Source of the DNA: Gammaproteobacteria bacterium
GTDB lineage: Bacteria; Pseudomonadota; Gammaproteobacteria; Pseudomonadales; Azotimanducaceae
Reading direction: 5' to 3'
Length of the DNA: 55,150 bases
Assembly (NCBI GenBank): GCA_002728675.1
Contig: PBVL01000058.1
Span: forward strand, 2,232-57,381
Part shown: positions 1,304 through 33,243 of the stretch, piece by piece
How the letters are laid out: each line of letters begins with the position of its first letter
How positions within the stretch are numbered: position 1 is the first letter of the stretch
Made by a program: the position numbers and the translations under genes
The notes under the pieces: model-generated
Told to the model about the DNA's origin: nothing
Database searches by the model: none
What the model saw: the letters and a program-made list of their open reading frames with translations, nothing else

Positions 1304-2065
1304 ATGATACCGGCCAACAGATCGTCAGAGCAGCAGCGACGTATGGCCACAACTCACGACCGTGTTCCGGAGGACGCACCCGAACTCCGCCAGGACCTTG
1401 CCGCGGCCCTGCGCCTTGCGGTCCGCCACAACATGCACGAAGGGATCTGCAACCACTTCAGCGTGGCGCTCGACGACCATCGATTTCTACTCAACCCTTT
1501 CGGCATCCACTGGTCACGTATCTGCGCGTCGGACATCATCACGGTTGACGAGCGAGCGCCGGACGACGCGGCGGAACTGACGGCGCTCTGCATTCACCGC
1601 GCGGTCCACAAACAACACCCGCGCGGGACGTGCGTTCTCCACACGCATATGCCGTATGCCACGGCGTTGACCTGCACCGTCGACCCCGAACTGAAACCGA
1701 TCCACCAGAACAGCCTGCGGTTTTACGACGACGTCGCCTACGACAACGACTACAACGGCCTCGCCGAAACGTTCGAGGAGGGCGGCCGTATCGCTGCCGC
1801 CATGGGCGACAAATCCGTGCTGTTCATGGCCAACCACGGCGTCATGGTGGCGGCCCCGACCATCGCCGAAGCGTTCGACAAGCTGTACTACCTGGAGCGC
1901 GCCTGCGAAGTTCAGGTGCTGGCGTTGTCGACGGGCCAGCCATTGGCAGAACTCGACGCGTCGATCGCCCGCCGCACGAAGGCGGATTTCGATCAGGGCA
2001 GCGCCTACTACCAGGCGCACTTCGACGCCGTCAAACCATTGCTCGACCGCAACTACCTGCGGTGA
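1304..2065 (+). CDS. class II aldolase/adducin-domain protein
   Basis: 253-aa ORF. NHFSVAL..., VLHTHMPYATAL and ANHGVMVAAPTIAEAF are hallmark class II aldolase/adducin N-domain motifs. Alternative ATG at 1343. Confidence 0.8.
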   Translation: MIPANRSSEQQRRMATTHDRVPEDAPELRQDLAAALRLAVRHNMHEGICNHFSVALDDHRFLLNPFGIHWSRICASDIITVDERAPDDAAELTALCIHRAVHKQHPRGTCVLHTHMPYATALTCTVDPELKPIHQNSLRFYDDVAYDNDYNGLAETFEEGGRIAAAMGDKSVLFMANHGVMVAAPTIAEAFDKLYYLERACEVQVLALSTGQPLAELDASIARRTKADFDQGSAYYQAHFDAVKPLLDRNYLR

Positions 2066-2156
2066 CGACTGTACCGCTGACGAGGTCAGCGCCCCCGGAT
2101 CCCATGGCTGCGGGTTGTTACAATCCGCAGCAAACAAACCGAGCGAGGAAGCCGCC

Positions 2157-2855
2157 TTGAGTAAACCCGTATGTCTCGTGACCGGCGTTGGCCCCGGGAC
2201 CGGCAGCGCCATCGTGCGTCGTTTTGCCGGTGACTACAAGGTAGCCATGCTCGCGCGCAGCGCCGACCGCCTTGCGGATCTCGCCGGGGAACTCGACGAC
2301 GCACATGCCTTTGCATGCGACGTGACGGACAACGCAGCGCTCGATGCCGTTCTGGACCAGGTTCGTGCCGAACTCGGCACCCCATCGGTGCTGGTCCACA
2401 ACGCCGTGGGCGGCGCGTTCGGCGACTTCCTGTCGATTGACGAGGAGACCCTGCGGCGCAACTTCGAAGTCAACACCATGGCGCTGCTGCACCTGGGTCA
2501 GGCGCTCGTGCCGGCCATGGTCGAAGCCGGCGGCGGCGCGGTGATCTGCACGGGCAACACCTCTGCCTACCGGGGCAAGGCGGGTTTCTCGGGCTTCGCG
2601 CCAACCAAGGCCGCACAGCGGATCCTGGCCGAATCGATGGCCCGACACGCGGGTCCCCTCGGCGTGCACGTCGCGTATGTCGCGATCGATGCCGTCATCG
2701 ACCTCGAATGGACACGCAAACGGAACCCCGACAAGCCGGACGACTACTACTGCCGGCCCGTCGACATTGCGGACCACGTCTGGCACGTCGCCCACCAGCC
2801 GAAATCGGCCTGGACGTTCGACACCGTGATTCGACCATTCGGTGAGGTCTGGTAG
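2157..2855 (+). CDS. short-chain dehydrogenase/reductase (SDR)
   Basis: ORF 2115-2855. Rossmann motif VTGVGPGTGSAIV near the N-terminus and NAVGG mid-motif. GAGGAA Shine-Dalgarno at 2145-2150 sits 6 nt before the in-frame TTG at 2157. The longest ORF starts at TTG 2115. Confidence 0.8.
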   Translation: MSKPVCLVTGVGPGTGSAIVRRFAGDYKVAMLARSADRLADLAGELDDAHAFACDVTDNAALDAVLDQVRAELGTPSVLVHNAVGGAFGDFLSIDEETLRRNFEVNTMALLHLGQALVPAMVEAGGGAVICTGNTSAYRGKAGFSGFAPTKAAQRILAESMARHAGPLGVHVAYVAIDAVIDLEWTRKRNPDKPDDYYCRPVDIADHVWHVAHQPKSAWTFDTVIRPFGEVW

Positions 2856-2906
2856 ACAGTCCGCCACGCGGGCGCCGTGCGATGTTGCCGACCGGACGTC
2901 CTGCGC

Positions 2907-4085
2907 TCAGCTATCCTCGCGGCGAAAAGGCGTGTGCTCGTTGATGTAGTCGATTTCTTCGTCGACGTAGCCGCGTTCCTGCTCGAGGAAGTGGTCAACC
3001 GCCTCGCGAAACGACTCGTTCACGATCCAGTGCGCGCTGTAGGTGTGGCTCGGCAGGTAGCCGCGCGCCAGCTTGTGCGGGCCCTGCGCACCGGCCTCGA
3101 CGCGCTGCAGACCGCGGCTGATCGCAAACTCGATCGCCTGGTAGTAGCAGACTTCGAAGTGCAGAAACGGGTGATCCTCGATGCAACCCCAGTTGCGTCC
3201 AAAGAGGCACTCGCTCCCAATGAAGTTGATGGCCCCCGCAATGTAACGTCCGGCACGTTTGCACAGAATCAGCAATAGGTCGTCGAGCATGGTCTCGCCG
3301 ATAATGCTGAAGAACGCGCGCTTCAGATACGGTGAACCCCACTTGCGATGGCCGGTATCGACGTAGAACTGATAGAACGCGTCCCAGTGTTCTTCCCTCA
3401 GATCGGACCCGGTCAACAGTTCGATCTCTACACCGTTGGCAACGGAGTCCCGGCGTTCCCGGCGGATGTTCTTGCGCTTCTTGCTCGACAACGCAGCCAG
3501 GAAGTCATCGAACGTTGCATAGCCGTCGTTCTGCCAGTGGAACTGCTTGTGGGTGCGCTGCAGGAAACCCAGCTTGCCCATGCGTTCCCACTCCGCTTCT
3601 TCCGGAAATGTGATGTGCACGGAGGAGACTTTCATCTGCTCGGCAACCTGCATGCACCCGGAGAGCAGGTAGGACTCCAGTTCCTCGACATCCTCGTGCT
3701 GACGGGTCAGCAGACGCCTTCCCGTTGCCGGCGTGAACGGTACGGAGACCTGAAGCTTGGGATAGTAGTTACCGCCCGCGCGCTCGAACGCGTCGGCCCA
3801 CGAATAGTCGAACACGTACTCGCCCTGCGAGTGGTTCTTCAGATACATAGGCATGACCGCTAGCGTGCCCTCTTCCTCGCTCGTGAGCTCCAGATGGTAG
3901 GGCGCCCAGCCGGTACGCGCGCATGCGGACTCGCTCTCCTCCAGCGCGGAAAGAAACGCATAGCTCGTGAACGCATCGAACGGAATCCCGCAGTCCGGGT
4001 TTGCGCGCGCCGGATTGGCGCATGCGTCCCATGCCTCGCGACCAATGTCCGCAATACTGCCGTGCGCTTTGAGTGTGAAAGACAC
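2907..4085 (-). CDS. FemAB-like / DUF482 (COG3146) acyl- or aminoacyl-transferase-fold protein
   Basis: 392-aa ORF. The pattern FLSALEES......GW.P.HL......G.L....P.Y.K.HS.GEYVFD..WA.A.......YYPKL....PFTP..G.R matches the DUF482/FemAB_like family as I recall it. Last gene of the F420 operon, 18 nt after the LLM gene. Confidence 0.75.
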   Translation of the reverse strand: MSFTLKAHGSIADIGREAWDACANPARANPDCGIPFDAFTSYAFLSALEESESACARTGWAPYHLELTSEEEGTLAVMPMYLKNHSQGEYVFDYSWADAFERAGGNYYPKLQVSVPFTPATGRRLLTRQHEDVEELESYLLSGCMQVAEQMKVSSVHITFPEEAEWERMGKLGFLQRTHKQFHWQNDGYATFDDFLAALSSKKRKNIRRERRDSVANGVEIELLTGSDLREEHWDAFYQFYVDTGHRKWGSPYLKRAFFSIIGETMLDDLLLILCKRAGRYIAGAINFIGSECLFGRNWGCIEDHPFLHFEVCYYQAIEFAISRGLQRVEAGAQGPHKLARGYLPSHTYSAHWIVNESFREAVDHFLEQERGYVDEEIDYINEHTPFRREDS

Positions 4086-4103
4086 CAGTACCGCCGCTTT
4101 GCC

Positions 4104-5114
4104 TCAGGCCCGCAATCGCGCCAGCAACTCTTTGCCGTGCTCGGCGTCGGCGACCGGGAGCGACAGCGTCGTTCGATCGGCCAGATCGCCGTACCTGGAC
4201 CTGAAGATGTCGACCACCGCGTCCACGTCTTCGGACACCACCGCAAACGCATCCAGAATCTCGTCGGTAATGAGCGTCCCCATCTGATCCCACTCGCCTT
4301 GTTTCGAGAGCCGGTTGAGTTCCGGCTGCAGATCACCCCACCCATGGAGCCCCAGCACCGGAGCGTAAGCAGGCGTCGAGCCATAGAACGCAATCTGTTT
4401 ACACACGGCCGTCTTGCTCGCCGCAAATGCCTCCTCGGTCTGCCCCGTCACGACAAATCCGGGATACGACACCTCAAAATCGTCCCGGGATCTTCCGTGG
4501 ACGGCGAGGCCTTTCCCGATCGCCGGCAACGTGACCTCGCGCAGATACTTCTCAGTCGTGAACGAGTGAATGATCACGCCGTCTGACACTTCACCCGCAA
4601 CTTCGGTCATCAGCGGCCCAACGGCTGCCAGAAACACCTTCGGCGCGCCGTAGTCGACATCAGTCGGCGTGAACATCGGCGTCATGAGCTTGTGCGTGTA
4701 GTAGTCGCCTTCGAACGCGAGACGCTCCCCCTTGTGCCAACTGTCCCAGATGGCCCGCATCGCGGTGATAAACTCGCGCATCCGCTTCGCCGGACTGGAC
4801 CAGGGCATCGAGAAGCGTTTCGTGATGTGGGCCTGAATCTGCGAGCCAAGCCCCAACACAAAACGCCCTTTGGAGAAGCTGTTCAGGTCGTGGCCGATGT
4901 TGGCAAGGTTCATGGGTGTCCGCGAGAACGCCACCGCGATGGACGTGATGAGTTCTATCCGCTCGGTTTCCTGGGCAGCGAGCAGCAACGGAAAGAACGG
5001 ATCGTGCGCCGTTTCCGCGGTGATGGCGCCGTCATACCCCATGGCCTCGAGTCGTTTGCCGGATGCCCCCGCCTGCGCGAGGTCTCCCATCAGACCGCTG
5101 TCAACTTTCATCAA
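4104..5114 (-). CDS. luciferase-like monooxygenase (LLM) class, probable F420-dependent oxidoreductase
   Basis: 336-aa ORF. LEAMGYDGAITAETAHDPFFPL, GRFVLGLGSQ and the TIM-barrel LLM pattern. Lies inside the F420 operon. Confidence 0.8.
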   Translation of the reverse strand: MMKVDSGLMGDLAQAGASGKRLEAMGYDGAITAETAHDPFFPLLLAAQETERIELITSIAVAFSRTPMNLANIGHDLNSFSKGRFVLGLGSQIQAHITKRFSMPWSSPAKRMREFITAMRAIWDSWHKGERLAFEGDYYTHKLMTPMFTPTDVDYGAPKVFLAAVGPLMTEVAGEVSDGVIIHSFTTEKYLREVTLPAIGKGLAVHGRSRDDFEVSYPGFVVTGQTEEAFAASKTAVCKQIAFYGSTPAYAPVLGLHGWGDLQPELNRLSKQGEWDQMGTLITDEILDAFAVVSEDVDAVVDIFRSRYGDLADRTTLSLPVADAEHGKELLARLRA

Positions 5115-5132
5115 CTGACCCCGCTCGCACGT

Positions 5133-6131
5133 CTAGAATTTGAAGTTCGCAGCCGAAAACGCTTCGGCCGTGGCCTCGTAGGCCTCCGGCACGACACACG
5201 CGATGATGTGCGTGTTCACTCCGGCATTGGCAAGGTCGCGAATGTCGTCCTGCACCTTCTCGCGGGACCCCACATGGGTGATCGAGTCCAGCAGTTCATC
5301 GTGCAACGCGCCCGTGGTTTTTGCCCTGTCCCGCGCGGCCCAACCTTCGGCAATCGCGTCTGCGGCGGCTTCCTGCCCGGCCCAGCGCAGGAACTTGTTG
5401 TAGACGGGGGTGGCATAGTACGGCGCAAAGTGTGACCGCAGTTTGTCCCGCGCCGCGTCGACGTCGTCAGTAACGGCACACTGATGTCGGCAGACAATCT
5501 CGATGTCCTCGAGTGTCTTGCCAGCCCGTTCGGCGCCGATGCGAACGTGCTCCAGCAACTTGGGCAACGCGTCACGCGGAAACAGATTGATGATCACGCC
5601 ATCTCCAACCTCGGCGGCCATCTCGAGCATCTTCGCGCGCAGACCCGCGATGTAGATCGGGGGCACTCCGGGCACGTCGGAGCCTGGCTGCGAATAGCCT
5701 TTGGAGCGGAGCGTCTCGCCCGCGAAGTCAGTTTTGCCACCCGCGAGGACGTGGCGCACGATTTCGACGGTTTCCTTCACGCGCGTCAACGGCTTCTCGA
5801 AGGTCACGCCATTCATGTTTTCCATCATGAACTGGCTCGACGATCCCAACCCCAGGATGAACCGGCCTTTCGAAACGTCGTGCAATACCTGGGCAGTCGC
5901 CGCGAGGACCGCGGGGGTGCGGGTGAACACGGGAATGATCGCGGTACCGATCCGAACGCGCTCGGTGAGCATTGCGACAGCGGACGCGGTGGTCAGTGAG
6001 TCGACGCCGGGTGTGTCGGCAAACCAGAGATCGTCGAACCCTTCATCCTCAGCCCACTTGGCATATTGGAACGTCTCGGGGATACCGTCCAGATTCGGCA
6101 TCGTCAGTGCGATTCTGTTTGGAATGGACAT
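5133..6131 (-). CDS. LLM class, probable F420-dependent oxidoreductase
   Basis: ORF 5133-6215. The homologous part starts at the internal ATG (MSIPNRIALTMPN...). AEDEGFDDLWFADT, GRFILGLGSS. AAGAGGAAG Shine-Dalgarno lies upstream of 6131. Confidence 0.8.
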   Translation of the reverse strand: MSIPNRIALTMPNLDGIPETFQYAKWAEDEGFDDLWFADTPGVDSLTTASAVAMLTERVRIGTAIIPVFTRTPAVLAATAQVLHDVSKGRFILGLGSSSQFMMENMNGVTFEKPLTRVKETVEIVRHVLAGGKTDFAGETLRSKGYSQPGSDVPGVPPIYIAGLRAKMLEMAAEVGDGVIINLFPRDALPKLLEHVRIGAERAGKTLEDIEIVCRHQCAVTDDVDAARDKLRSHFAPYYATPVYNKFLRWAGQEAAADAIAEGWAARDRAKTTGALHDELLDSITHVGSREKVQDDIRDLANAGVNTHIIACVVPEAYEATAEAFSAANFKF

Positions 6132-6159
6132 CAGCGCTACTCTTCCTCTTTGTGCTTGC

Positions 6160-6675
6160 TTACTGTTTTTGTTCTTTTTCCGCGTTCCGCAGATCCTGGT
6201 CCGCCTGTGGCGCATGCCAGATCTGTGGCTGAGTCTGGCCCATCAGGTCAGTCAGCGCCGACAGTTCGATCCGCCAGGGTTTGAGCTTCAGCAGGCCGTA
6301 GGTCGGGTCAGTCTTCCCGCCCTGCCAGATCATGCCAGGGTCGTAGCCAAGCGGCGGCGGTGTTGCTTTGAACAACTCCCAGATCCGCTCTTTCTCAGCC
6401 TGGTCATCTTCCCATGACGCCTCGCAGTCGGCGTAGATTTGCTGGTGGTCCTGATCCCAGTACGACAGCGTGAGGAACGGATTGGCTTCGAGGTGTTTGG
6501 CCTTCAGCGACTGCCGCCCTGTAGCGATCCAGCCGACGGTCCCTTCCCAGACAGGATGCAGCATGCGCGATCGCGGCCGTCCCTTGCGGTCGACCGTGGC
6601 AACCGACGCCCAGACGACTTTGGCAACCCGTTCGAGGAACGCCGCTTGAATTTCTGCAAAGTCTTCAACGACCAT
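6160..6675 (-). CDS. pyridoxamine-5'-phosphate-oxidase (PPOX) fold protein, possible F420/FMN-binding
   Basis: ORF 6160-6708. VATVDRKGRPRSRMLHPVW...ANP.LTLSYW is the split-barrel PPOX pattern. GGAG sits 7 nt before ATG 6675. Alternative starts: GTG 6708, ATG 6681. Confidence 0.7.
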   Translation of the reverse strand: MVVEDFAEIQAAFLERVAKVVWASVATVDRKGRPRSRMLHPVWEGTVGWIATGRQSLKAKHLEANPFLTLSYWDQDHQQIYADCEASWEDDQAEKERIWELFKATPPPLGYDPGMIWQGGKTDPTYGLLKLKPWRIELSALTDLMGQTQPQIWHAPQADQDLRNAEKEQKQ

Positions 6676-6723
6676 GGACATCTCCAATGGCGAGGTCCCG
6701 CGCTCCACGATCGGCTGCGCACA

Positions 6724-9252
6724 TCAGATGATGTCGGCGCTCGTGATCTTCTCGCCGTCATCCAGCAGACCGGGACGTACAAGCTCAGCCTTGTCGCGCT
6801 TGTTCGCTCTGTCGTATTTGCGCGCCGAGGTATAGGTCGGCTCAATCAACGTCTTCGCGCCAAACGAACGCGCGGTCTGCACTTCGCTGACCTCGCCATA
6901 GGCGGTACTGCGTTGTTTGGGTGTCCGGCCAGCGCTGCGGATGATGGCTTCCATCTCCTCCGGAGACGTCTCCTGGCCGTGGCTCGCGCCTGCCGCACGG
7001 GTGATGGTCTCGTTCATCAGCGTTCCGCCGAGATCGTTCACGCCCGCCTGCAGGCATGCTCTGACGCCGTCGTGCCCCAACTTGGTCCAGGACGCCTGGA
7101 TGTTGCTGAAGACGGGATGCAGCGCCAACCGGGCAACGGCATGAATCAGTACACCTTCGCGGAAGGTTGGGCCTTTCCGCGCCGCTCCCTTGAGGTAAAT
7201 CGGCGATTCCATGTGGATGAAGGGCAACACGACGAACTCGGTGAACCCGCCCGTACGTTCCTGCAGCCCGCGCAGCCGCAACAGGTGCCGCGCAACGTGC
7301 TCGTACCCTTCGATGTGACCGAACATCAGCGTCGCGGTGGTGTTGAAACCCACCTTGTGCGCGGCTTCCATGACTTCGAGCCACTGCGCGGTGTTGATCT
7401 TGTCCGGGCACAGCGTCGCCCGCACCTCGTCGTCCAGCACTTCGGCCGCGGTGCCCGGCAACGTGCCGAGCCCGGCTTCCTTCAGGTCCGTGAGAAACGA
7501 CTCAAGCGAGACGCCCAGCGTCTCCGCACCCTGCCAGACTTCGAGCGGCGAGAAGGCGTGCACATGCATGTCAGGGATGACCTGCTTGATCGCGTGCACG
7601 ATGTCGATGTACGTCTTGCCGGTGTATTCGGGGTGAATGCCGCCTTGCAGGCAGACTTCAGTCGCTCCGCGCTCGTGGGCTTCACGGGTGCGGCGCATGA
7701 TCTCTTCATGGGAGAGATCGTACGGACGTCCGCGCAGGTTCTCGCTCATCTTGCCTTTGGAAAACGCGCAGAACTGACATTTGAAGTAGCAGACGTTCGT
7801 GTAGTTGATGTTGCGGTTGACGACGTAGGTGACCGTGTCACCGGAGACCTCGCGACGGAGTTTGTCCGCGGCCGCACAGACGTGGGTGAAATCGTCACCC
7901 CGCGCCTGCATGAGGCGCACGATGTCGGCCTCGTCGAGTTTCTTCCCGTCATCAACCTTCGCGAGAATCGCAGCGACATCAGGGCTCGGCGCGAGTTTGG
8001 GAATTGCCGTGACCCGCGCCAGATCCGCGGCGGGTGGGTCTTCGACCGCGCCGGCGGCCCAGTTCTCGGTTCGGGCGAATCCCTGTCCGTCGAGCGCCTG
8101 CCGGACGGCCGGCTGCAGTTGGGGATCGATCCAGCGTTCCACGTCGCGGGCCCAGGCGGGATACAGCGCGAGGCGTTCGTGCAGGTGTTTACCCGCGGCA
8201 GCCGTTTCGTTGGCGAGGTTCGTGAGGTGCGGCCAGGGCGCTTCCGGATTGACAAAATCCGGAGTCACCGGCGACACGCCGCCCCAGTCGTTGATGCCCG
8301 CGTCCACGATCTGGGGCAACACGCCGGGTGACAGGTTCGGGGGTGCCTGCACGTTCATGTCCTGGCCAAAGATGATCCGCGCGACGGCAATGGTCCAGAG
8401 CAGTTCGTTCAGGTCCGGCTCCGGGGCGTCGACCATCAGCGTGTCGGGCTTCGCTCGGAAGTTCTGAATGATGATTTCCTGCAGGTTGCCGTAGTCAGCC
8501 TGCACGGCGCGCAAGTCCAGCAGGGACTGCACCCGTTCGAGGCGCGTCTCGCCAATGCCGATCAGAATCCCGGACGTGAACGGCACCGCGGCCTCGCCGG
8601 CAAGACGCATGGTCTCGATGCGCCGCGCAGGCACTTTGTCAGGTGAGCCGTAATGCGGCATCCCCTTCTCTCCCAGGCGCTCCGACGAACTCTCGAGCAT
8701 GATGCCCATCGAGATCGAAACCTTGCGCAACACCTCGAAGTCCGCGGCATCCATCAATCCCGGGTTGAGGTGCGGGAAGAGGCCCGTCTCTCTGTAAACA
8801 AGTTCAGCCATGTCGCGCAGGTAGGTCAGCGTCGACTCCTGGCCCATCGCCTCGAGCGCTTCGCGCGCCGCGCGGTAGCGCAACTCGGGCTTGTCGCCCA
8901 GCGTGAACAGCGCCTCCTTGCAGCCCGCCTTCGCGCCGTCCCGCGCAATCCTGAGCACCTCATCCGGAGTGAGATAGGGCGCCTTCACCTTGCGCGGCAC
9001 CTGCGCAAACGTGCAGTAGTGGCAAACATCCCGACACAGGTGCGTCAGGGGAATGAAGACTTTCCGCGAGTAGGACACGGTATTGCCGTGTCCGGCATCG
9101 CGAATCCTGCCAGCGGCCGCGACCAGGGCGGCGGTGTCGGTGTAGTCCGCCAGCGCAAGCGCCTGCGCATCAGTTGGCACATGGCCCGCGATCGCCGCCT
9201 CAAGTATTTCCGAAATGCCTTGCATGCTTCCCGTCTGGATTGACTCGGTCAC
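6724..9252 (-). CDS. fbiC: bifunctional FO synthase (7,8-didemethyl-8-hydroxy-5-deazariboflavin synthase, CofG+CofH fusion)
   Basis: 842-aa ORF with two radical-SAM CxxxCxxC motifs (CRDVCHYCTF in the N-terminal half, CYFKCQFCAF in the C-terminal half). Collinear with FbiC. 4-nt overlap with cofC. Confidence 0.95.
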   Translation of the reverse strand: MTESIQTGSMQGISEILEAAIAGHVPTDAQALALADYTDTAALVAAAGRIRDAGHGNTVSYSRKVFIPLTHLCRDVCHYCTFAQVPRKVKAPYLTPDEVLRIARDGAKAGCKEALFTLGDKPELRYRAAREALEAMGQESTLTYLRDMAELVYRETGLFPHLNPGLMDAADFEVLRKVSISMGIMLESSSERLGEKGMPHYGSPDKVPARRIETMRLAGEAAVPFTSGILIGIGETRLERVQSLLDLRAVQADYGNLQEIIIQNFRAKPDTLMVDAPEPDLNELLWTIAVARIIFGQDMNVQAPPNLSPGVLPQIVDAGINDWGGVSPVTPDFVNPEAPWPHLTNLANETAAAGKHLHERLALYPAWARDVERWIDPQLQPAVRQALDGQGFARTENWAAGAVEDPPAADLARVTAIPKLAPSPDVAAILAKVDDGKKLDEADIVRLMQARGDDFTHVCAAADKLRREVSGDTVTYVVNRNINYTNVCYFKCQFCAFSKGKMSENLRGRPYDLSHEEIMRRTREAHERGATEVCLQGGIHPEYTGKTYIDIVHAIKQVIPDMHVHAFSPLEVWQGAETLGVSLESFLTDLKEAGLGTLPGTAAEVLDDEVRATLCPDKINTAQWLEVMEAAHKVGFNTTATLMFGHIEGYEHVARHLLRLRGLQERTGGFTEFVVLPFIHMESPIYLKGAARKGPTFREGVLIHAVARLALHPVFSNIQASWTKLGHDGVRACLQAGVNDLGGTLMNETITRAAGASHGQETSPEEMEAIIRSAGRTPKQRSTAYGEVSEVQTARSFGAKTLIEPTYTSARKYDRANKRDKAELVRPGLLDDGEKITSADII

Positions 9253-10043
9253 GTCGCCCCCAGGCCCACAGTGTTGTCGTTGTCTTCCGCACCCGAAGAA
9301 GCGGCGCGTTCAAGCTGGTCGATGGTACCACTTGAGTCAAGAAAACTGCGGGTTCTGGGCGCCCCGCCCCCACGCGCCACCAGCGCATGCAGGTCCCGGG
9401 GAAAGTCCACGTCCAGCCCCACGCCTTCCAGCATCAGCGTCACTGGCGTGATACCTGCCTCGCGGGCAATTGTCATGTGTTTACGGTAACTGTCGAGGCC
9501 GAACGCGAACCGCATGCACCCGGGCGGCGCGGTCAGAAGCAGATTGGTGCCCCCGAGATCCTCCGCAGGAGCAACGATCATCCGGGAGCCTTCCTGAGCG
9601 CGCCGGTAGGCATCAATGGCGGCCGCGAGTTCGGCGGTGGTCGCAAGCGGAATGTCGGCAGGGAGAAACACCATCGCCGCAGCCTTCGAGGCCCGCAGCC
9701 ACGCCCCGGTTTCGGTAACCGCCGGTATGAGACCCCGTGTCTCCGGTTCCGGGCGGATCAATGCCCCGAAGCGAGCCGCCAGTTCGCGTACTTCAGCGTC
9801 GTCGGTGAGGACCACGCAGCCGTCGAGCGCATCGCACGACGTCGCAACCTCGAGCACGTCCCCAACCATCGCGCGAAACAACCCTGAGCGTTGCGAGGAC
9901 GACAGCAGCCCGGCGAGGCGCTGCTTTGCATCCGCAATCTGCTTGATGGGGATCACGGCATAGATGCCGCCGGCGCGGACTCCCGCCTGCGTGGCGGCGC
10001 CGTCGGGTTGCACGCAGTCCTGCTCTGGATCGGTTCCGGTCAT
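9249..10043 (-). CDS. cofC: phospho-acid guanylyltransferase of F420 biosynthesis (CofC/FbiD)
   Basis: ORF 9249-10151. Core IYAVIPIK....AKQRL...L...R..L..AM..DVL and GGTN are CofC-like. Start uncertain: ATG 10043, GTG 10082, or TTG 10151 (which overlaps cofD by 23 nt). Confidence 0.8.
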   Translation of the reverse strand: MTGTDPEQDCVQPDGAATQAGVRAGGIYAVIPIKQIADAKQRLAGLLSSSQRSGLFRAMVGDVLEVATSCDALDGCVVLTDDAEVRELAARFGALIRPEPETRGLIPAVTETGAWLRASKAAAMVFLPADIPLATTAELAAAIDAYRRAQEGSRMIVAPAEDLGGTNLLLTAPPGCMRFAFGLDSYRKHMTIAREAGITPVTLMLEGVGLDVDFPRDLHALVARGGGAPRTRSFLDSSGTIDQLERAASSGAEDNDNTVGLGAT

Positions 10044-10128
10044 GGGCTCGGGCCGCGGTGATTGCAGAAGAACCGGGGGCACGCGGCGTATTCCCGGGAA
10101 GGAGGTGAGCGCTTCAGGCTCGCAGCCC

Positions 10129-11085
10129 CTAAGCTCGTAGAGAGGCGGCAAACGCCAGGGTATCGCGCGCCAGTTGCTCTCGGTCGGCCAACGTTACCAT
10201 GACGGTCTGCGTCACAGTAGCGGCGGGCCCTGCTTCCCGCACCAAATCGGCACTGTCCAGATCAGCCTCATCAATCACCAGACCATCGATGCGACCTGCG
10301 TAGTGACGCGCCACCGAGACGGGGTCCCGGGGCATGCCCAATTCATCCATCATCTTCGCTGCGGGCCCCTTGAGCGCCTGGCCACCGACGATCGGCGACA
10401 CCGCGACGACCGGCGCGTCACTGCCGTCGAGAGCAGCCTGCACGCCGGGCAGCTTCAGCACGGGATCGACTGAAACGAACGGATTCGACGGACAGATCAC
10501 CACGCAATCGAGGTCGCTGCGCGCAAGCGCGTCGGCAAACCCCGCCGCCGGTGCCGCGCGCTCAATCCCTTCGAAGCGAAACCCCGCGACGACCGGCTCA
10601 CACTGATCGCGGACGAAGTAGTGCTGAAACGCGAGGTCGCCACCGTCCTTCAGTTCGACGATCGTCGGCACGGGATCGTCGCTCATGGGCACGATCGGAT
10701 GCGCCACGCCCAGCCGGCGGCAGAGATCTCCGGTCACCGTCGAGAGGCTGCGGCCCTCGGCGAGCCAGCGCGTGCGCGTGATGTGCGTTGCGAGATCCCG
10801 GTCGCCAAGCCGGAACCAATCCTCACCGCCCAGCGCGCTCAAGGCGTCAAGGAAATTCCAGCTCTCTCCGGCGAGGCCCCAACCGGCCTCTTTGTTGGAG
10901 AGGTCCGCAAGGGTGTACATCACCGTATCGAGGTCGGGGCAGATCGTGAGACCAAGGTGCGTGAAATCGTCGCCCGTGTTAGCGACGATCGTCAGCCTGT
11001 CGGGGGGCAGAATCCGCGACAGGCCAAGCGCGAGCTTGGCCCCGCCAACTCCGCCAGACAGGGCCACCACGTGTCCATCAGCCAT
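10129..11085 (-). CDS. cofD: 2-phospho-L-lactate (or analogue) transferase, F420-0 synthase
   Basis: 318-aa ORF. N-terminal VVALSGGVGGAKLALGL and the ICPSNPFVSVDPVL motif are typical of CofD/FbiA. Confidence 0.9.
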   Translation of the reverse strand: MADGHVVALSGGVGGAKLALGLSRILPPDRLTIVANTGDDFTHLGLTICPDLDTVMYTLADLSNKEAGWGLAGESWNFLDALSALGGEDWFRLGDRDLATHITRTRWLAEGRSLSTVTGDLCRRLGVAHPIVPMSDDPVPTIVELKDGGDLAFQHYFVRDQCEPVVAGFRFEGIERAAPAAGFADALARSDLDCVVICPSNPFVSVDPVLKLPGVQAALDGSDAPVVAVSPIVGGQALKGPAAKMMDELGMPRDPVSVARHYAGRIDGLVIDEADLDSADLVREAGPAATVTQTVMVTLADREQLARDTLAFAASLRA

Positions 11086-11100
11086 GACGATGAGCGCCGC

Positions 11101-11880
11101 TCACCTGAAGAGATCCATGTCACGCGGCCGGATGAGCGGCTGTACACCGCGCTGATCCATGGCTTCCGGCTCGCGGGGTGCATACCCGCGTACGAGCACG
11201 ACCGGGGTTTTCTCGTCGGTCTGGCCCATGACCAGAGACGCGCCCGCCGCCATTTCATCCGCGGCACCCACCTGCGTGACGACCAGTTCCCGGCCGAAGA
11301 TGTCCTGTCCGCCGATGTGGTCTTCGAGCGCGGTGAACCCGGCAACGCCGATGGCAAGTCCGAGCGATCCGTTGCGCCAGGCGCGCCCGATGCTGTCGTT
11401 GATGATCACCCCAACCCGGACACCGAGCCGGGTTGCAACCGCTTCGCGCAAGGCTCTTGCGCTCGCATCCGGATCTTCCGGGAGGAGCAGACAGATCGCT
11501 TCGGGATCGTCGGCATCACCCTCGATGTTCGACTGATCGATGCCAGCGTTCGCCTGCACGAAGCCGAGTCTGTGTTCGACGATCAGCACGCCGGGTCGCT
11601 TGCGGACAACCTCGACGGATTCGTCGAGGATCGCCTGCACCTTGCGAGGCTCTTTGTCGACCTCTGCACCGAGCGCAACCGCCTCCGCAGACGGTTCGAC
11701 CGTCCGCAGATCGAGGTAGCGGTCTTCCGCCTTGGACACGATCTTCTGGGCGAGGACCAGGACGTCACCATCCTGAATCGTCTCGCCGATCGTGGCGAGC
11801 CCGGCGTTGATCAGTTCGAGCAGGTCGTCACCGGGTTCCACCATCGGAATCCCGGGTATACCGATGAAGGCGAGTTGCAT
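11101..11880 (-). CDS. cofE: coenzyme F420-0:L-glutamate ligase (stand-alone CofE, no FbiB nitroreductase domain)
   Basis: 259-aa ORF. PGDDL...I......DGDVLV.AQKIVSKAE, ANAGID.SN and NDS.GRAWR.G motifs of CofE. Confidence 0.9.
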   Translation of the reverse strand: MQLAFIGIPGIPMVEPGDDLLELINAGLATIGETIQDGDVLVLAQKIVSKAEDRYLDLRTVEPSAEAVALGAEVDKEPRKVQAILDESVEVVRKRPGVLIVEHRLGFVQANAGIDQSNIEGDADDPEAICLLLPEDPDASARALREAVATRLGVRVGVIINDSIGRAWRNGSLGLAIGVAGFTALEDHIGGQDIFGRELVVTQVGAADEMAAGASLVMGQTDEKTPVVLVRGYAPREPEAMDQRGVQPLIRPRDMDLFR

Positions 11881-11884
11881 CGCG

Positions 11885-12559
11885 CTATTCTCCGGACACG
11901 GGCTCGCCGGTGATCGTGATGCCGGACCCTTCGATTTTGTGATGACGGTTGATGGTGATCAGGACCGACGTGAGCGCCTCCGCCGCCGACGCGTTGGCAA
12001 GCGGCCCGGCGTGCCAGCCCTTCAGGCCCGCCGCCTCGACCAGTTCGATCACCTTGTCCCGTGCGGCCCGTTTGTTGCCCGTGACCAGCACGTCGCAAGC
12101 AATGGCATGATCTTCGCGGAGATGCTGTGCGCCGACGTTCTGGAAGGCGGAAACCACCTGCACGTCCTCACCAAGGCAATCCTGGGCCATTTCGGCCGCG
12201 GAACCGCGTTCGGGCATCTGTACGGTCCCCACTTTTGGCGGAACCAGCGGTACGGTGACATCCACGAGGACCTTGCCGACGAGACCGGGTTTCACGACTT
12301 CGAGCGTGCTGACCTGGTGCGCAAACGGTACGGTCAGCACGACGATGTCAGCCTGAGTCGCCGCATCGAGGTTCTCCATGCCGGTGACGTTGAGGTCTGC
12401 AAACTCGGCAAGCAGGTCCGCCGCCGCCTGCTGGCCCTTCTCCAGCGTCCTCGAGCCGATGATGATCGTATAGCCCGCCCGCGACCAGCGACGCGCAAGA
12501 CCGCCTCCTAGATCGCCAGTTCCGCCCAGAATAGCGATGGTTTCTTTCGCGTCCGACAT
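11885..12559 (-). CDS. npdG: NADPH-dependent F420 reductase (Fno/NpdG)
   Basis: ORF 11885-12712. The homologous part begins at the internal ATG (MSDAKETIAILGGTGDLGGGLA...), which has the Fno-type dinucleotide fold motif. 4-nt gap to cofE. Confidence 0.85.
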   Translation of the reverse strand: MSDAKETIAILGGTGDLGGGLARRWSRAGYTIIIGSRTLEKGQQAAADLLAEFADLNVTGMENLDAATQADIVVLTVPFAHQVSTLEVVKPGLVGKVLVDVTVPLVPPKVGTVQMPERGSAAEMAQDCLGEDVQVVSAFQNVGAQHLREDHAIACDVLVTGNKRAARDKVIELVEAAGLKGWHAGPLANASAAEALTSVLITINRHHKIEGSGITITGEPVSGE

Positions 12560-12600
12560 TGTGTTGCACCGTATGACAGGGGCCGCGGAGTATACAGTCG

Positions 12601-13206
12601 TCAGAAGCCGGCCGCGCGGTCCAACCGGCTGTGAAGCAACGTCACGCACTGTGAGGCAAAGAGTGTTGTCGGCCCAAGCGCGAGCGGCTGCGCCCCCAGG
12701 CGCCGGAGCCAACGGGCCGTATTACGCGGCAGCGGCGTGTGATCCGTCAGGACGAACGTGGGGTCCGGGACATCGGTGAGGCCCTCGATGTCGTCTCCGC
12801 GTCGATCCAGAAGGTAGAGCGGACCGGCCCCGGCAAGCTCCTTCACGAAGTGCTCGAAACTCGTCGCACGCACTTCGACCCCCGCATCGGTCCGCAGCGA
12901 GCCGTCCTTGGGAAGCGCCCGCGCGGCATCCAGGGGGCCTGCAACCGCTTCCACCAGCGCGGCCTCGGTGAGTCCGGGCAGCGTCCCGATGACGCCACCG
13001 TCGAACGTCACCACGCGCGAAAAGTCCTGCGAGCGCTCGAGCACCAGGTGCACCACGGTGTCGGAGCGGTGTCCCTGTGCCACGAACAGGGCGTCGACAA
13101 GGATGCGCACCAGAAACTCGACTCGCGGGCCCTGGCCCACCGCCGCGCGGAACGCGGCGGCCTCGGTTGGCGCGGAGCGCGCCTTGATGACGAATCGCCT
13201 TGTCAC
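12601..13206 (-). CDS. TrmY-like (DUF358) SPOUT-superfamily protein, function unknown in bacteria
   Basis: ORF 12601-13362. The N-terminal 52 aa of the long ORF are low-complexity G/P/R. The in-frame GTG at 13206 gives a 201-aa product (V)TRRFVIKARSAPT...FLVRILVDALFVAQGHRSDTVVHLVL...PTFVLTDHTPL...LFASQCVTLLHSRLDR. This follows the block order I recall for archaeal TrmY (Mj1640). First gene of the F420 operon. Confidence 0.6.
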   Translation of the reverse strand: MTRRFVIKARSAPTEAAAFRAAVGQGPRVEFLVRILVDALFVAQGHRSDTVVHLVLERSQDFSRVVTFDGGVIGTLPGLTEAALVEAVAGPLDAARALPKDGSLRTDAGVEVRATSFEHFVKELAGAGPLYLLDRRGDDIEGLTDVPDPTFVLTDHTPLPRNTARWLRRLGAQPLALGPTTLFASQCVTLLHSRLDRAAGF

Positions 13207-13456
13207 TGCCCCACCCCCCAGGCGCCAGGATTGTCGGCTTGTCTTCCAACCCGGGCCAGGCCCCGTGCCCCTGCATGCCTCAGGCCCCCGTTCGCGTGCA
13301 GGGGCGCCCCGTCCGGGAGGGCCTGACGCCTGCTGATCCGGCGCCTGAGCCACTGTCCGCATCGGGTCGATCTCGCACAGGTTTCCGGTTCTGCGGCCGG
13401 GTTACGGGCCTGCCGGCGGTTCCCTGGCGCGGTCGGCAGACGTTTTCCACATTTTC

Positions 13457-13465
13457 TGTGGATAA
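13457..13465 (-). promoter_or_regulatory. perfect DnaA box (TTATCCACA on the minus strand)
   Basis: The plus strand reads TGTGGATAA at 13457-13465. A second, same-orientation 8/9 box TGTGCATAA lies at 13646-13654. Both sit in the AT-richer 0.9 kb intergenic island. Confidence 0.35.
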
Positions 13466-13738
13466 CTCTGGTGATAAGCCTCTCCAAAGTGCCCGAAACC
13501 CCCGCTACACGGGCTTTGAGCAAGTTTGTACATTTTTTACACAGATGGAACATTGTCTTATAAATCAGCCACCTATCGATTAAGCATATGGAGAAGCGGC
13601 AAAGATCGCCGGGCGAACCGTTCGTCTGTCGGTTTTTTCGACGCGTGTGCATAAGTACTTGGACAAATCGGCGCAAAAACCCTGATTTTGCAGTGGAAAC
13701 GGGCTTAATGGTGTCAAAATCTCGACATCTGACCCTAC

Positions 13739-13771
13739 TTGACAACTTTCCGCGTCCTGTAAAACAGGGGG
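13739..13771 (+). promoter_or_regulatory. possible sigma70-type promoter (TTGACA -35) facing the acyl-CoA synthetase gene
   Basis: TTGACA at 13739-13744, followed after 15 nt by TAAAAC. The -10 match is weak. Purely sequence-based. Confidence 0.2.
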
Positions 13772-14147
13772 CCAAACCGCCGTCGCTTGTACGCGTTCTC
13801 TTACACACCACCTTGCGCGTCCTCGCCGCGCGTTCGATCCGCGCAGAGCGCGGTCCGTACCGTCGTACTCAACAACCCGACGCCCCCAGCGGGGCCACAT
13901 TGTGCATCCACCGGCTTACGATTCCGCCAGAGGACTCTGCCGTCGTTGCCCAAACGGTGAGGACCGGCAGGTGCCCGGGCGGACAGTACGCGCTCATTCT
14001 TCGAAAAAAACCCGGGATATCGCCACCGAATGGCCACACTACCGGCACAATGATGTCACTTGAACCATCAGCGCTGCACCGGAGCCGCGACCTGACCCCA
14101 AGTCAAAAACGGTACACTTGCCCACGATTGAACGGGACCGACACACG

Positions 14148-15938
14148 ATGAGCATTGCCGACATTCTGGGTGACCTCAAAGTTCTCTACACCGCTGCCAC
14201 ACGCAAAGCACCTGACGGCAACTCCGCCGAGTCGTTTGGCCTGATGATCGCGCAGAACGCGTCGCGGTGGCCGAACGAGACGGCGCTCATCTGTGAGGAC
14301 GAGTCGGTGACCTGGCAGGAACTGAACTCGCGCGCCAACCATGTCGCAAGTGAACTGCGCGCAAAGGGCATTGGCGCGGGCGACTGCGTCGCACTGTTCA
14401 TGCAGAACCGGATCGACTTCGTCGCGACGCTGGGCGGGATCGTCAAGCTCGGCGCGGTCGCGGGATTGATCAACACCAACCTGACCCGTGCGCCGCTCGC
14501 CCACTGCATCAAGCTCATCGAGTCCAAGGCGTGTATCTTCGGTGAAGAACTGACGGAAGCGCTGAATGAGATTCGCGATGAACTGAGTCTCAGGGGCGGC
14601 GAGGACTACCTGTACGTCGCCGACGAAGGCAACACCCCACCGCCCAACTGGGCGACAGGCCTCGACACGCACGGGTCCAGTCCCTCGAGCCCGACCGAGA
14701 CGGCGAGCGTTCGGTTGAAAGACACCGCGTTCTACATCTTCACATCCGGTACGACCGGGCTGCCGAAAGCCGCGGTCGTCTCCCACAAGCGGGTGATGCC
14801 GGCTGCGATGATGTCCGCGACAATGTTGCAGCGGATCGATCAGAAAGACCGCATGTACAACTGTCTGCCCCTGTATCACGGGACCGGACTCATCATCGGT
14901 ATGGCGTCCGCGTTCGCTGTTGGCGCATCAACGGTCATCAAACGCAGGCTGTCCGTGAGCGCGTTCTGGGACGACATCCGTCAGCACAACTGCACCTCAT
15001 TCGTATACATCGGCGAGTTCATCCGCTATCTGCTCTCACGGCCAGAGCATCCCTCCGATGCTGACAACCCCGTCCGCACAATCGTTGGGAACGGCCTCCG
15101 GCCGGACATCTGGCAGGACTTCAAGGAGCGTTTTGCGATTGACCGGATTGGCGAGTTCTATGCCGCAAGCGAAGGCAACGGCGGCTTTGCGAACCTGTTC
15201 AACAAGGACGCCACCGTCGGTTTGCCCATCGCCCCCTGTGCGCTGATCGCCTACGACGTTGCACAAGACGAGATCGTTCGGGGATTGGACGGCCTTTGCC
15301 AACGAGTTCCCGAAGGGGCGGCGGGACTGCTGCTGATCGAGGTGACCGGAAAGTCAGAGTTCGAGGGCTACACCAGCGCGGAGGCGAGCGAGAAGAAACT
15401 GTTGCGCAACGTGTTCGAGCAGGGCGACGTCTGGTTCAACAGCGGCGACCTGATGAAGATCGTCGACGTCGGTTTCGCGTACGGACAGAAGCACTACCAG
15501 TTTGTCGACCGGGTCGGCGACACCTTTCGCTGGAAGAGCGAGAACGTGTCGACCAACGAGGTGGGCGAGATCGTTAACCAGCATCCCGATATCATTTTCA
15601 CCAACGTCTATGGCGTAACGATTCCGGGCACCGACGGTCGCGCCGGCATGGCAGCCATAGTGTTTCGCGACGACCTCGGAAAACCGGATCTCGAGGCCAT
15701 CTCAGCCCATGTGCGCGACAACCTGCCCAGCTATGCGCAACCGATATTCCTGCGCATACTGAAGGAACTGCCGACGACGTCCACACACAAGCTGCAGAAG
15801 AACGATCTGCGGGATCAGGCGTTTCATCTCGACAAGACGGGCGATGACCTCTACGTGATGCGCCCCCGCGAGACCGTCTATACGCGTCTCGACAGTGACT
15901 ACTACGATCAGATCATGCGTCGTGAAGTGGCTTTCTGA
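14148..15938 (+). CDS. FATP/FadD6-type long-chain acyl-CoA synthetase
   Basis: ORF 14118-15938 (TTG). The ATG at 14148 gives MSIADILGDLK... AMP-binding motif YIFTSGTTGLPKAAVVSH plus the FATP-like C-terminal GDTFRWKSENVST motif. Confidence 0.85.
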   Translation: MSIADILGDLKVLYTAATRKAPDGNSAESFGLMIAQNASRWPNETALICEDESVTWQELNSRANHVASELRAKGIGAGDCVALFMQNRIDFVATLGGIVKLGAVAGLINTNLTRAPLAHCIKLIESKACIFGEELTEALNEIRDELSLRGGEDYLYVADEGNTPPPNWATGLDTHGSSPSSPTETASVRLKDTAFYIFTSGTTGLPKAAVVSHKRVMPAAMMSATMLQRIDQKDRMYNCLPLYHGTGLIIGMASAFAVGASTVIKRRLSVSAFWDDIRQHNCTSFVYIGEFIRYLLSRPEHPSDADNPVRTIVGNGLRPDIWQDFKERFAIDRIGEFYAASEGNGGFANLFNKDATVGLPIAPCALIAYDVAQDEIVRGLDGLCQRVPEGAAGLLLIEVTGKSEFEGYTSAEASEKKLLRNVFEQGDVWFNSGDLMKIVDVGFAYGQKHYQFVDRVGDTFRWKSENVSTNEVGEIVNQHPDIIFTNVYGVTIPGTDGRAGMAAIVFRDDLGKPDLEAISAHVRDNLPSYAQPIFLRILKELPTTSTHKLQKNDLRDQAFHLDKTGDDLYVMRPRETVYTRLDSDYYDQIMRREVAF

Positions 15939-15941
15939 ACC

Positions 15942-16826
15942 TTGAGCATCACAGCGGACAAGCGTCCAACCTCACACTCCTACTTCTCGCAACGCCTGCG
16001 CCTGCACTACCTGGACTGGGGCAACCCTGATGCGCCGCACGTGCTGCTCATTCACGGCGTGCAGGACCATTGCCACAGCTGGGACTGGGTCGCGCGGGAG
16101 TTGGCGACCGACTACCACGTCGTTGCACCGGACCTGCGCGGGCACGGCGACTCCGAGTGGGCCATGGGCGGCAGCTACGCCTACGTCGATTTCGTCTTCG
16201 ATCTCATTCAACTCGTTGACCAGGAGCAACTGCATCCGGTCCACGTGGTTGGTCATTCGTTCGGAGGCGCGCTCGCGTGCCTGTTCGCGGGACTGTTTCC
16301 CGACAAGACCGCAAGCCTCGTGTCGGTCGAAGGCATTGGCGGGCACCCCGCATTCGACTCCCGCGGTGAACCACGCAAGCGCATCCTCGACTGGATCGAC
16401 CACACCCGCAGTCTCGCCGGCCGCCAGCCGCGCCGCTACGAGTCAATGCGTGACGCACAGGCTCGAATGCAGGCCACCAACACCCACCTTTCGGAAGAAC
16501 AGGCCCACCATCTCACCGCGCACGGCAGTAACCGGAACGAGGACGGCACGTTTACCTGGAAATTCGACAACTACACGCACTCGCACGCGCCCTATCACAT
16601 CCCTCTCAGCGACACCTTGAAACTGTGGGAGCAGATCGCCTGTCCCACGTTGCTGCTGAACTCCGACAACGGCTACAGCCACCGAACGGGTCAGAACGAC
16701 TCGCTCAAGCATTTCCATCATGCGGAACTGGCAGTTGTCGAGGGCGCCGGGCACTGGCTGCATCACGACCAGCTCCGCATCTTCATGGAACGGGTGCAGG
16801 CTTTCCTGGTGCGAGTCTCCGGCTGA
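15942..16826 (+). CDS. alpha/beta-fold hydrolase
   Basis: 294-aa ORF (TTG start 3 nt after the upstream stop). HGVQDH..SW...A..L, nucleophile elbow GHSFGG, C-terminal GAGHWLHHD. Confidence 0.85.
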   Translation: MSITADKRPTSHSYFSQRLRLHYLDWGNPDAPHVLLIHGVQDHCHSWDWVARELATDYHVVAPDLRGHGDSEWAMGGSYAYVDFVFDLIQLVDQEQLHPVHVVGHSFGGALACLFAGLFPDKTASLVSVEGIGGHPAFDSRGEPRKRILDWIDHTRSLAGRQPRRYESMRDAQARMQATNTHLSEEQAHHLTAHGSNRNEDGTFTWKFDNYTHSHAPYHIPLSDTLKLWEQIACPTLLLNSDNGYSHRTGQNDSLKHFHHAELAVVEGAGHWLHHDQLRIFMERVQAFLVRVSG

Positions 16827-17080: not shown

Positions 17081-17086
17081 GCTCCG

Positions 17087-29027: not shown

Positions 29028-29082
29028 CCGGTGACTCTCTCAGGCAATGGGTTCAAGGACGGGACCTGCGCATTGGCCGCGC

Positions 29083-33241: not shown

Positions 33242-33243
33242 GA

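Follow-up and report, generated by a model that had tools for sequence, protein, structure and literature searches.

Why should a cluster of genes for the synthesis and use of the deazaflavin cofactor F420 begin with a TrmY-like SPOUT protein and end with a FemAB-like transferase? The question is raised by a stretch of 55,150 nucleotides (hereafter the window) from contig PBVL01000058.1 of assembly GCA_002728675.1, a gammaproteobacterium of the Azotimanducaceae, in which these two genes stand at the borders of an F420 block. They are called bracket genes below. A preliminary description of the window took the whole block as a single transcript and proposed that it may make or use a modified cofactor. 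Here we prefer a different scenario, with a probability of roughly 0.68. The block would be a standard F420 core that was extended downstream with redox cargo and most likely has its own promoter before npdG. The TrmY-like gene would be an older neighbour, and the FemAB-like gene is probably co-transcribed with the block without tailoring its cofactor.

What does the block contain? The listing of open reading frames (ORFs) and profile searches give ten minus-strand genes at 2907-13206, in the order TrmY-like, Fno, CofE, CofD, CofC, FbiC, PPOX, two luciferase-like oxidoreductases (LLMs), and FemAB-like. The intergenic spacers, read from the TrmY-like end to the FemAB-like end, are 41, 4, 15, 85, -4, 15, 28, 18 and 18 nt. 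In genes, their order, strand and spacing, this re-derivation agrees with the preliminary description. Its count of eleven genes is replaced by ten, which is also the length of its own list, and eleven is reached only if the fused FbiC is taken as CofG plus CofH. A convergent short-chain dehydrogenase/reductase (SDR) gene at 2115-2855 abuts the FemAB-like end. The features of the block are as follows, with profile scores given against their cut-offs or as expect (E) values.

12601-13206, minus strand: TrmY-like SPOUT protein, DUF358/COG1901, bacterial branch (PF04013, E 4e-41)
12589-12594, minus strand: -10-like hexamer TATACT upstream of npdG, counterpart of the clade motif GGAATAATC / TTGTnn-17-AATAAT
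11885-12559, minus strand: Fno/NpdG, NADPH:F420 oxidoreductase (TIGR01915, 196.1 vs 149.8)
11101-11880, minus strand: CofE, stand-alone gamma-glutamyl ligase (TIGR01916, 262.7 vs 181)
10129-11085, minus strand: CofD (TIGR01819, 291.7 vs 257)
9249-10043, minus strand: CofC guanylyltransferase (TIGR03552, 138.7 vs 105)
6724-9252, minus strand: FbiC, fused CofG+CofH, FO synthase (NF006687, 1160 bits vs 1018)
6160-6708, minus strand: PPOX/PNPOx-fold protein, cofactor uncertain (PF01243, E 3.5e-10)
5133-6131, minus strand: LLM_a, F420-type luciferase-like oxidoreductase (PF00296, E 2.4e-75)
4104-5114, minus strand: LLM_b, F420-type luciferase-like oxidoreductase of the TIGR03617 family (466.6 bits vs cut-off 278)
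2907-4085, minus strand: FemAB-like / DUF482 / COG3146 tandem-GNAT protein, the final gene of the block (PF04339, E 2.9e-158)

How far does this set account for F420 synthesis? FbiC, CofC, CofD and CofE all exceed the curated equivalog cut-offs of NCBIfam, and so does Fno; these gene identities are direct observations. CofE has 259 aa and covers just positions 13-243 of the 449-position FbiB-type model NF009810, and profile searches of the block genes found no nitroreductase domain, neither as an FbiB C-terminus nor as a stand-alone gene. The pathway had been called complete. This stands for the four known core enzymes and does not stand for the rest, for CofE is without the FbiB nitroreductase domain and no source of 2-phospholactate can be assigned. 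As in other Proteobacteria, one step, the supply of 2-phospholactate or the reduction of dehydro-F420, is thereby left without an assigned enzyme. As for the cofactor itself, makers of 3-phosphoglycerate-derived F420 (3PG-F420) carry Ser or Thr at a diagnostic CofC position (PMC8764529). In the alignment, 'FGLDS' of the window CofC lies opposite 'FSGPS' of 7P97 and 'FGPDS' of 6BWG / M. tuberculosis FbiD, and the residue at the site equivalent to S162 of Mrhiz-CofC is Gly, like that in M. tuberculosis FbiD. Since Gly occupies the diagnostic site, the cofactor made is predicted to be ordinary F420, and use of 3-phosphoglycerate is not predicted. The CofC start used here is backed by homologues of 263-264 aa.

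What would the cofactor be used for? LLM_b belongs to the F420-specific LLM subfamily TIGR03617. For LLM_a, and for a third LLM lying further upstream (LLM_c), the F420-type LLM models of NCBIfam alone match, every score being below cut-off. The nearest relatives of LLM_a and LLM_b in the Protein Data Bank (PDB) are the F420-dependent Mer and Fgd, with LLM_a matching Mer at E 5e-32. The PPOX protein stays outside the F420-PPOX family (FDOR-B, TIGR03618), which it matches weakly with 29.6 bits vs a cut-off of 79.05, and its PDB matches reach E about 1e-3 at best, to FMN-dependent PNPOx. In the mechanism that we propose, FbiC would make FO, CofC and CofD would attach the phospho-linker, CofE would add the glutamate tail, and Fno would load the hydride of NADPH onto F420. 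The clade would have extended this core downstream by a changing set of F420-type LLMs, and sometimes a PPOX-fold protein, that consume F420H2. The earlier notion of a self-contained module is supported in this sense: the module makes F420, recharges it from NADPH and uses it through F420-type LLMs.

Linkage of the bracket genes to the F420 block

Is the arrangement a peculiarity of one genome? Related loci (L numbers below) were sampled starting from homologues of the TrmY-like, FemAB-like and CofC proteins, and also from a DNA motif that is non-coding and has no relation to the two bracket proteins. Fourteen loci are fully covered: the window, L001, L004, L009, L016, L021, L069, L082, L088, L089, L097, L098, L099 and L101. 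In each of them the order TrmY-like, Fno, CofE, CofD, CofC, FbiC, (PPOX), 2-3 LLMs, FemAB-like is kept, and the FemAB-like gene is terminal in 14/14. TrmY-like followed by Fno is also found in 30+ shorter, partly covered contigs. The source records of the related loci are marine and other metagenome-assembled genomes labelled Gammaproteobacteria, Pseudomonadales or Ca. Azotimanducaceae, and a contig of 5.4 kb from a marine metagenome (L159) shows 99-100% identity in those genes that it covers. Across the clade, the identities are 78-93% for Fno, 72-90% for FbiC, 67-88% for FemAB-like, 41-65% for CofC and 43-69% for TrmY-like.

The linkage of DUF358 and DUF482 to F420 genes, which had been put forward as something to check beyond this genome, thus recurs in the 14 full loci and, for TrmY-like, in the 30+ partial ones. 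The linkage of both bracket genes to the F420 block is real, and it is confined to one clade; this synteny is observed directly. Since the association traces to a single clade, it is effectively one evolutionary event, maintained since. In the literature on DUF358 with F420, on DUF482/COG3146, and on F420 in Gammaproteobacteria, no description of the arrangement was found, and as far as that search reached the linkage of the bracket genes is undescribed.

What changes within the clade is the cargo between FbiC and FemAB-like. The PPOX gene is present in about 5/14 of the related clusters and absent from the others, and three LLM types are variously combined. Because no individual LLM, nor the PPOX, is shared by all clade members, none of them is an obvious obligatory biosynthetic reductase. 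The gene beyond FemAB-like also varies by locus, and may encode an SDR, Ppx-GppA, class II aldolase, PhzF, elongation factor G, enoyl-CoA hydratase or zinc-dependent alcohol dehydrogenase.

Transcript structure

Where does the F420 operon start? In the aligned upstream DNA a sigma-70-like pair, TTGTnn-17-AATAAT (core GGAATAATC), is conserved upstream of Fno. The core lies 37-64 nt before the Fno start, exact in 9/16 loci and as a variant in most others. Equivalent sites were located in L001, L004, L008, L021, L027, L089 and L097-L099, and in L009 a consensus scan independently calls TTGTTA-17-AATAAT (10743-10771). In L088, L089 and L098 the motif reaches into the 3' end of TrmY-like. In the window, a consensus promoter and terminator scan of 2000-14300 gave no signal above chance. 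In the first 12 loci TrmY-like and Fno are 14-358 nt apart, and in the motif-derived sample 41-973 nt (median about 180); the gap of 973 nt is that of L141 and is free of ORFs. Within the core, most junctions measure -20 to +75 nt. The exceptions are one of 151 nt in L008 and the insertions that split the core operon between cofD and cofC, about 7.0 kb in L027 and 3.4 kb in L053. One further locus, L184 (10389-12849), keeps LLM_c, the AMP-binding gene, a DnaA-box core (described below) and TrmY-like, and then has a convergent aldehyde dehydrogenase gene in place of npdG, so the F420 block is absent or displaced at this syntenic site.

Taken together, the motif upstream of npdG, the long spacers between TrmY-like and Fno, and L184 argue that the F420 operon proper starts at npdG, most likely at its own promoter just upstream of that gene. 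The TrmY-like gene is probably a separate unit that belongs to the upstream neighbourhood. A single transcript beginning before TrmY-like, as had been suggested from the short spacers of the window, is weakened by the same motif, by TrmY-to-npdG spacers of up to 973 nt and by L184. And where does the operon end? The FemAB-like gene follows the last LLM by 3-81 nt across loci (18 nt in the window), and it is probably co-transcribed as the last cistron. We infer this transcript structure from spacing, motif conservation and synteny.

What the bracket genes may do

The AlphaFold2 model of the FemAB-like protein (pLDDT 84, pTM 0.84) has the tandem-GNAT Fem fold. Its top Foldseek matches are FemX (E 7e-13), Sba18/Sbb17, FemA and MprF, all with probability 1.0 and template modelling (TM) scores of 0.5-0.7, up to 0.70 for Sba18, at a sequence identity of merely 12-16% for FemX, FemA and Sba18/Sbb17. 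Sba18/Sbb17 and FemX are aminoacyl-tRNA-dependent formers of peptide bonds, and the protein is thus modelled to fold like aminoacyl-tRNA-dependent Fem transferases; acyl-CoA-using tandem GNATs (VipF, Eis2, a clavulanate GNAT) also match the model. PF04339/COG3146 has no member with proven activity, and an earlier prediction of COG3146 as a 'pterin-dependent enzyme' was invalidated (PMC3223725).

Homologues of this protein are found well outside the clade, with 53-58% identity in Methylobacterium, Shinella and Sinorhizobium and 39-42% in Pseudomonas, Ralstonia and Halomonas. The Sinorhizobium gene (55%) has a glycerophosphodiester phosphodiesterase gene on one side and a HIT protein gene on the other, with rpsB and clpA close by. 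No F420 genes are nearby there, nor at the homologues of Methylobacterium (58%) and P. aeruginosa (42%), and at 134 of the 151 positions where the clade does not vary, Methylobacterium has the same residue. Since the close homologues stand in housekeeping contexts, the FemAB-like protein is not expected to be an F420-tailoring enzyme. As the last cistron it would carry out a Fem-type tandem-GNAT transferase chemistry common to these homologues among housekeeping genes. Among the hits from a plasmid collection, identity is higher to homologues from Alphaproteobacteria (Methylobacterium 58%, Sinorhizobium 55%, Sphingomonas 51%) than to those from Gammaproteobacteria (Pseudomonas 42%, Halomonas 39%), a pattern of similarity that hints at paralogy or lateral transfer.

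Does the other bracket gene tell the same story? The TrmY-like protein belongs to PF04013, and with 152.3 bits it falls below the cut-off of 183 for the TrmY equivalog NF002560. Its closest structure is V. cholerae VC_A1059 (PDB 2QWV), aligned end to end at E 3e-48. The archaeal TrmY Mj1640, a tRNA m1-pseudouridine-54 methyltransferase, also aligns end to end (E 3e-15), including the C-terminal LTDH-P-P/knot region. Bacterial tRNA has T54, and the pseudouridine-54 maker Pus10 is given in the literature as archaeal and eukaryotic and absent from Bacteria (PMC6380271, PMC5682645). The bacterial TrmY-like branch is listed as 'unknown methylase' (PMC5041015). F420 genes are lacking within 10 kb at 71 of the 80 best TrmY-like genome loci. 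The hosts of such unlinked genes include Vibrio, Photobacterium, Shewanella, Alcanivorax, Dokdonella/Lysobacterales and Halioglobus, and a search for conserved neighbours of the unlinked genes gave only genus-specific contexts. A set of 21 residues, including D155 and H156, is invariant across F420-linked and unlinked proteins. The TrmY-like gene would thus be an older neighbour, anchored to the spacer that carries the DnaA boxes next to the acyl-CoA synthetase gene and transcribed for the most part on its own, and its product would probably do the same F420-independent methylation as its relatives in Vibrio and Shewanella.

Three further points concern individual TrmY-like proteins. A loss of RNA-binding basic residues in the F420-linked group was considered and rejected, the changes being mostly conservative and the net charge similar. 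The L097 gene is not a pseudogene, since its frame is intact over residues 5-197 and the 125 aa call reflects a late start chosen by the gene caller. In L141 (6292-7865) the otherwise invariant LTDH-P-P motif carries H156Q and P160S, changes which may reflect relaxed constraint on the protein.

The distributions of the two families are observed; from them we infer that the bracket genes have no role in F420 chemistry. The modified cofactor of the preliminary description loses its ground on three sides: both bracket families occur mainly without nearby F420 genes, the association is that of a single clade, and CofC has Gly at the diagnostic site (PMC8764529).

What speaks against our scenario? 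Both bracket genes are present in 14/14 fully covered members while the downstream flank changed at least six times, and neither any LLM nor PPOX is as universal as these two genes. The persistence of FemAB-like amid turnover of flank and LLM/PPOX cargo suggests selection keeping it in the unit. In L098 a terminator-like hairpin lies between the last LLM and FemAB-like, and co-transcription is therefore not uniform. In the window the TATACT hexamer has its -35 partner 24 nt away, out of register, and the spacer between TrmY-like and npdG is just 41 nt, so read-through from upstream of TrmY-like may be relevant there. Finally, the F420-linked TrmY-like proteins form their own long-branched group, with a mean pairwise identity of 53% vs 75% among unlinked ones, and these long branches could reflect changed function instead of relaxed constraint.

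The alternative that survives best, though we consider it unlikely, makes FemAB-like and not TrmY-like a partner of the LLMs. It would N-acylate or aminoacylate the substrate or product of an LLM, possibly a lipid-like small molecule or an amine given the neighbouring acyl-CoA genes, and the block from npdG to FemAB-like would serve one pathway, catabolic or biosynthetic, beyond supplying a cofactor. The FemAB-like gene is indeed always last, on the same strand, 3-81 nt after an LLM, it is conserved (67-88%) like the F420 enzymes, it is retained through the turnover of LLM types, and the window holds many genes for acyl-CoA and lipid metabolism (FadD6-like ligase, hydrolase, enoyl-CoA hydratase, acyl-CoA dehydrogenase, PhyH). 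But homologues of 55-58% identity stand in housekeeping contexts without LLM or F420 genes, no LLM type is constant and there is thus no fixed partner enzyme, and L098 has its terminator-like hairpin before FemAB-like.

Might the bracket genes tailor the cofactor after all? Here one ten-gene operon is supposed, in which the SPOUT protein, the Fem-type transferase or both modify the deazaflavin, and the clade makes or uses a modified F420. The examples would be methylation of FO or F420 and, by analogy to CofF, an aminoacyl-tRNA-dependent capping of the glutamyl tail. The constancy of both genes at the borders of 14/14 loci despite changing flank and cargo speaks for it, as do the FemX- and Sba18/Sbb17-like fold of FemAB-like (TM up to 0.70), the uniformly short spacers of the window, and a reduction of dehydro-F420 or a 2-phospholactate step left without an assigned enzyme, CofE having no nitroreductase domain. 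Yet the missing step, a reduction or a kinase reaction, fits neither of the two folds. Both families mostly occur away from F420 genes, with their invariant residues preserved in those settings, the bracket genes are not in other F420 clusters, and the association is limited to one clade. The promoter-like motif and the long spacers before npdG, together with L184, where npdG does not follow TrmY-like, also stand against one operon. We regard this reading as quite improbable, and give as little credit to its narrower form, in which a Fem-type transferase, possibly with the SPOUT protein, is dedicated to F420 tailoring or to the pathway, for example to oligoglutamate capping. If a tailoring role were true, the clade would make a deazaflavin variant not yet described.

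Least probable of all is neutral synteny in a slowly rearranging region, with neither bracket gene co-transcribed with or related to the F420 genes: upstream synteny does reach LLM_c, the hydrolase, the AMP-binding gene and the DnaA-box core, the downstream aldolase, SDR and 4HBT genes do recur in the window and L089, and the association does have a single-clade origin, but spacers of 18 nt (window) and 3-6 nt (L001, L101) leave no space for a FemAB-like promoter, and the flank beyond FemAB-like changed many times while the junction of LLM and FemAB-like never did.

Surroundings and comparison with known systems

The neighbourhood upstream of the block, to which the TrmY-like gene is assigned above, holds the following features.

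13443-13477, plus strand: DARS1-like core of three DnaA-box-like 9-mers, inside a 911-nt spacer
14118-15938, plus strand: long-chain acyl-CoA synthetase, divergent (NF006134, 705 bits vs 625)
15942-16826, plus strand: alpha/beta hydrolase, divergent (PF00561)
17087-18001, minus strand: LLM_c, the third LLM, F420-type by best matches (PF00296, E 2.5e-30)

The third LLM noted earlier about 4 kb away is thus a real gene, and it is kept 4 kb upstream in related loci with 74-90% identity. The AT-richer island noted at 13.2-13.8 kb corresponds to the 911-nt spacer before the block (13207-14117), with a GC content of 0.556 vs about 0.64. Orthologues of the acyl-CoA synthetase (AMP-binding) gene occur in most related loci with 60-81% identity, and are synteny partners of the block. 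The regions 14118-18001 and 28125-36982 of the window are rich in acyl-CoA and lipid genes. Beside the FadD6-like long-chain acyl-CoA synthetase and the alpha/beta hydrolase, they encode two enoyl-CoA hydratases and two PhyH-family dioxygenases, together with an acyl-CoA dehydrogenase and a further AMP-ligase, a hint that lipid-like compounds are the substrates of the F420-dependent LLMs. Four ORFs with high GC at third codon positions have no Pfam match: 18107-18820 (-), 27532-28068 (-), 29971-30711 (-) and 42665-43252 (-). The first has no NCBIfam match either, and its position is that of a weak DSBA-like gene in L001, L004 and L101. Rfam and tRNA scans of the whole window gave no matches.

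What is conserved in the spacer? Positions 13443-13477 (+) read TTTTCCACA-TTTTC-TGTGGATAA-CTC-TGGTGATAA, and this triple-box pattern has one match in the window and zero in 100 shuffles. The core of a DARS (DnaA-reactivating sequence) consists of three DnaA boxes, the middle one with full consensus (PMC6868365), and the sequence pattern at 13443-13477 has this architecture. E. coli DARS1, in the bioD-uvrB spacer (L100 808-842), reads TTATCCACT-ATTCC-TGTGGATAA-CCA-TGTGTATTA. The box orientations are the same in both: box I, 5 bp, an inverted full-consensus box II, 3 bp, and box III in the same sense as II. The window core differs in its genomic neighbourhood and bacterial order, and it is tandem-amplified in some relatives. 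The core is conserved in 10 related loci, and it is 91-97% identical in loci whose TrmY-like proteins share only 43-69%. An exact-pattern scan found the core in 115 marine metagenome stretches, for the most part placed between the genes for the acyl-CoA synthetase and TrmY-like, and 60 of the 80 fetched adjoin AMP-binding, TrmY-like or Fno genes. In L179 (3100-4064) the core lies within a 410-nt unit repeated 2.3 times, L163 (953-1807) has three copies about 410 nt apart, and L140 (2500-5400), where no ORF reaches 120 aa, contains four units of 620-760 nt. The boxes do not mark a replication origin (oriC), as the GC skew is monotonic across the window. Judged by its pattern, the core may be a DnaA-reactivating or DnaA-regulatory site outside enterobacteria, and could be of general interest for replication control there.

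In several relatives a beta-lactamase-family (PF00144) gene lies between the core and TrmY-like (L004 8783-9949, L089 1-530, L097, L099), and that of L089 overlaps TrmY-like by 4 nt. A decayed copy in the 911-nt spacer of the window was ruled out, there being no tblastn signal; the PF00144 gene of the window is at 21044-22402, 8 kb away.

What does the cluster add to what is known? With it, the range of well-supported clusters for making and using F420 comes to include a widespread clade of marine Gammaproteobacteria; the text of a 2021 FEMS review on F420 names Alpha- and Betaproteobacteria and never Gammaproteobacteria. With Fno, four biosynthetic enzymes and LLM clients, it offers a compact unit for heterologous F420 production. 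It also sharpens the question of how 2-phospholactate is supplied or dehydro-F420 reduced in Gram-negatives with stand-alone CofE and Gly-type CofC. For bacterial COG1901 and COG3146/DUF482, the clade is the sole cross-genus conserved gene context found, which is a functional lead and not proof of an F420 role.

Among characterized pathways, the 3PG-F420 pathway of the Gram-negative Mycetohabitans (Paraburkholderia) rhizoxinica is alike in having stand-alone CofC, CofD and CofE plus FbiC. Its CofC type (7P97) is the closest solved structure by sequence (E 6.5e-21), but it has the diagnostic Ser162 where the window CofC has Gly. The next-nearest cluster reached via CofC, L102, reads LLM-Fno-CofE-CofD-CofC-FbiC, with Fno 58% and FbiC 65% identical, and has neither bracket gene.

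Plasmid-borne clusters of Alpha- and Betaproteobacteria allow a wider comparison. Paraburkholderia sp. PGU19 plasmid p3 has npdG-cofE-cofD-cofC-fbiC, exactly the gene order of the window. On plasmid 2 of Aromatoleum aromaticum EbN1 fbiC is placed upstream of npdG-cofE-cofD-cofC, the partly annotated Sinorhizobium meliloti pSymA record has at least npdG-cofE, and Leisingera plasmids share the core genes in another order. The direct linkage of Fno to biosynthesis had been thought unusual. In these clusters npdG adjoins cofE in 4/4, and some also carry PPOX or an F420-type LLM nearby; since npdG-linked clusters recur in other Proteobacteria, the linkage of Fno and F420-type oxidoreductases is common. 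The plasmid clusters resemble the window in their stand-alone CofE, fused FbiC and Fno linked to biosynthesis, with core proteins 42-62% identical. However, they have no TrmY-like and no FemAB-like gene, and those of Aromatoleum and Paraburkholderia adjoin insertion sequence elements, whereas the clusters of the window clade are chromosomal, gammaproteobacterial and carry 2-3 LLMs in line. The cluster is a clade-level addition to this known proteobacterial F420 cluster type.

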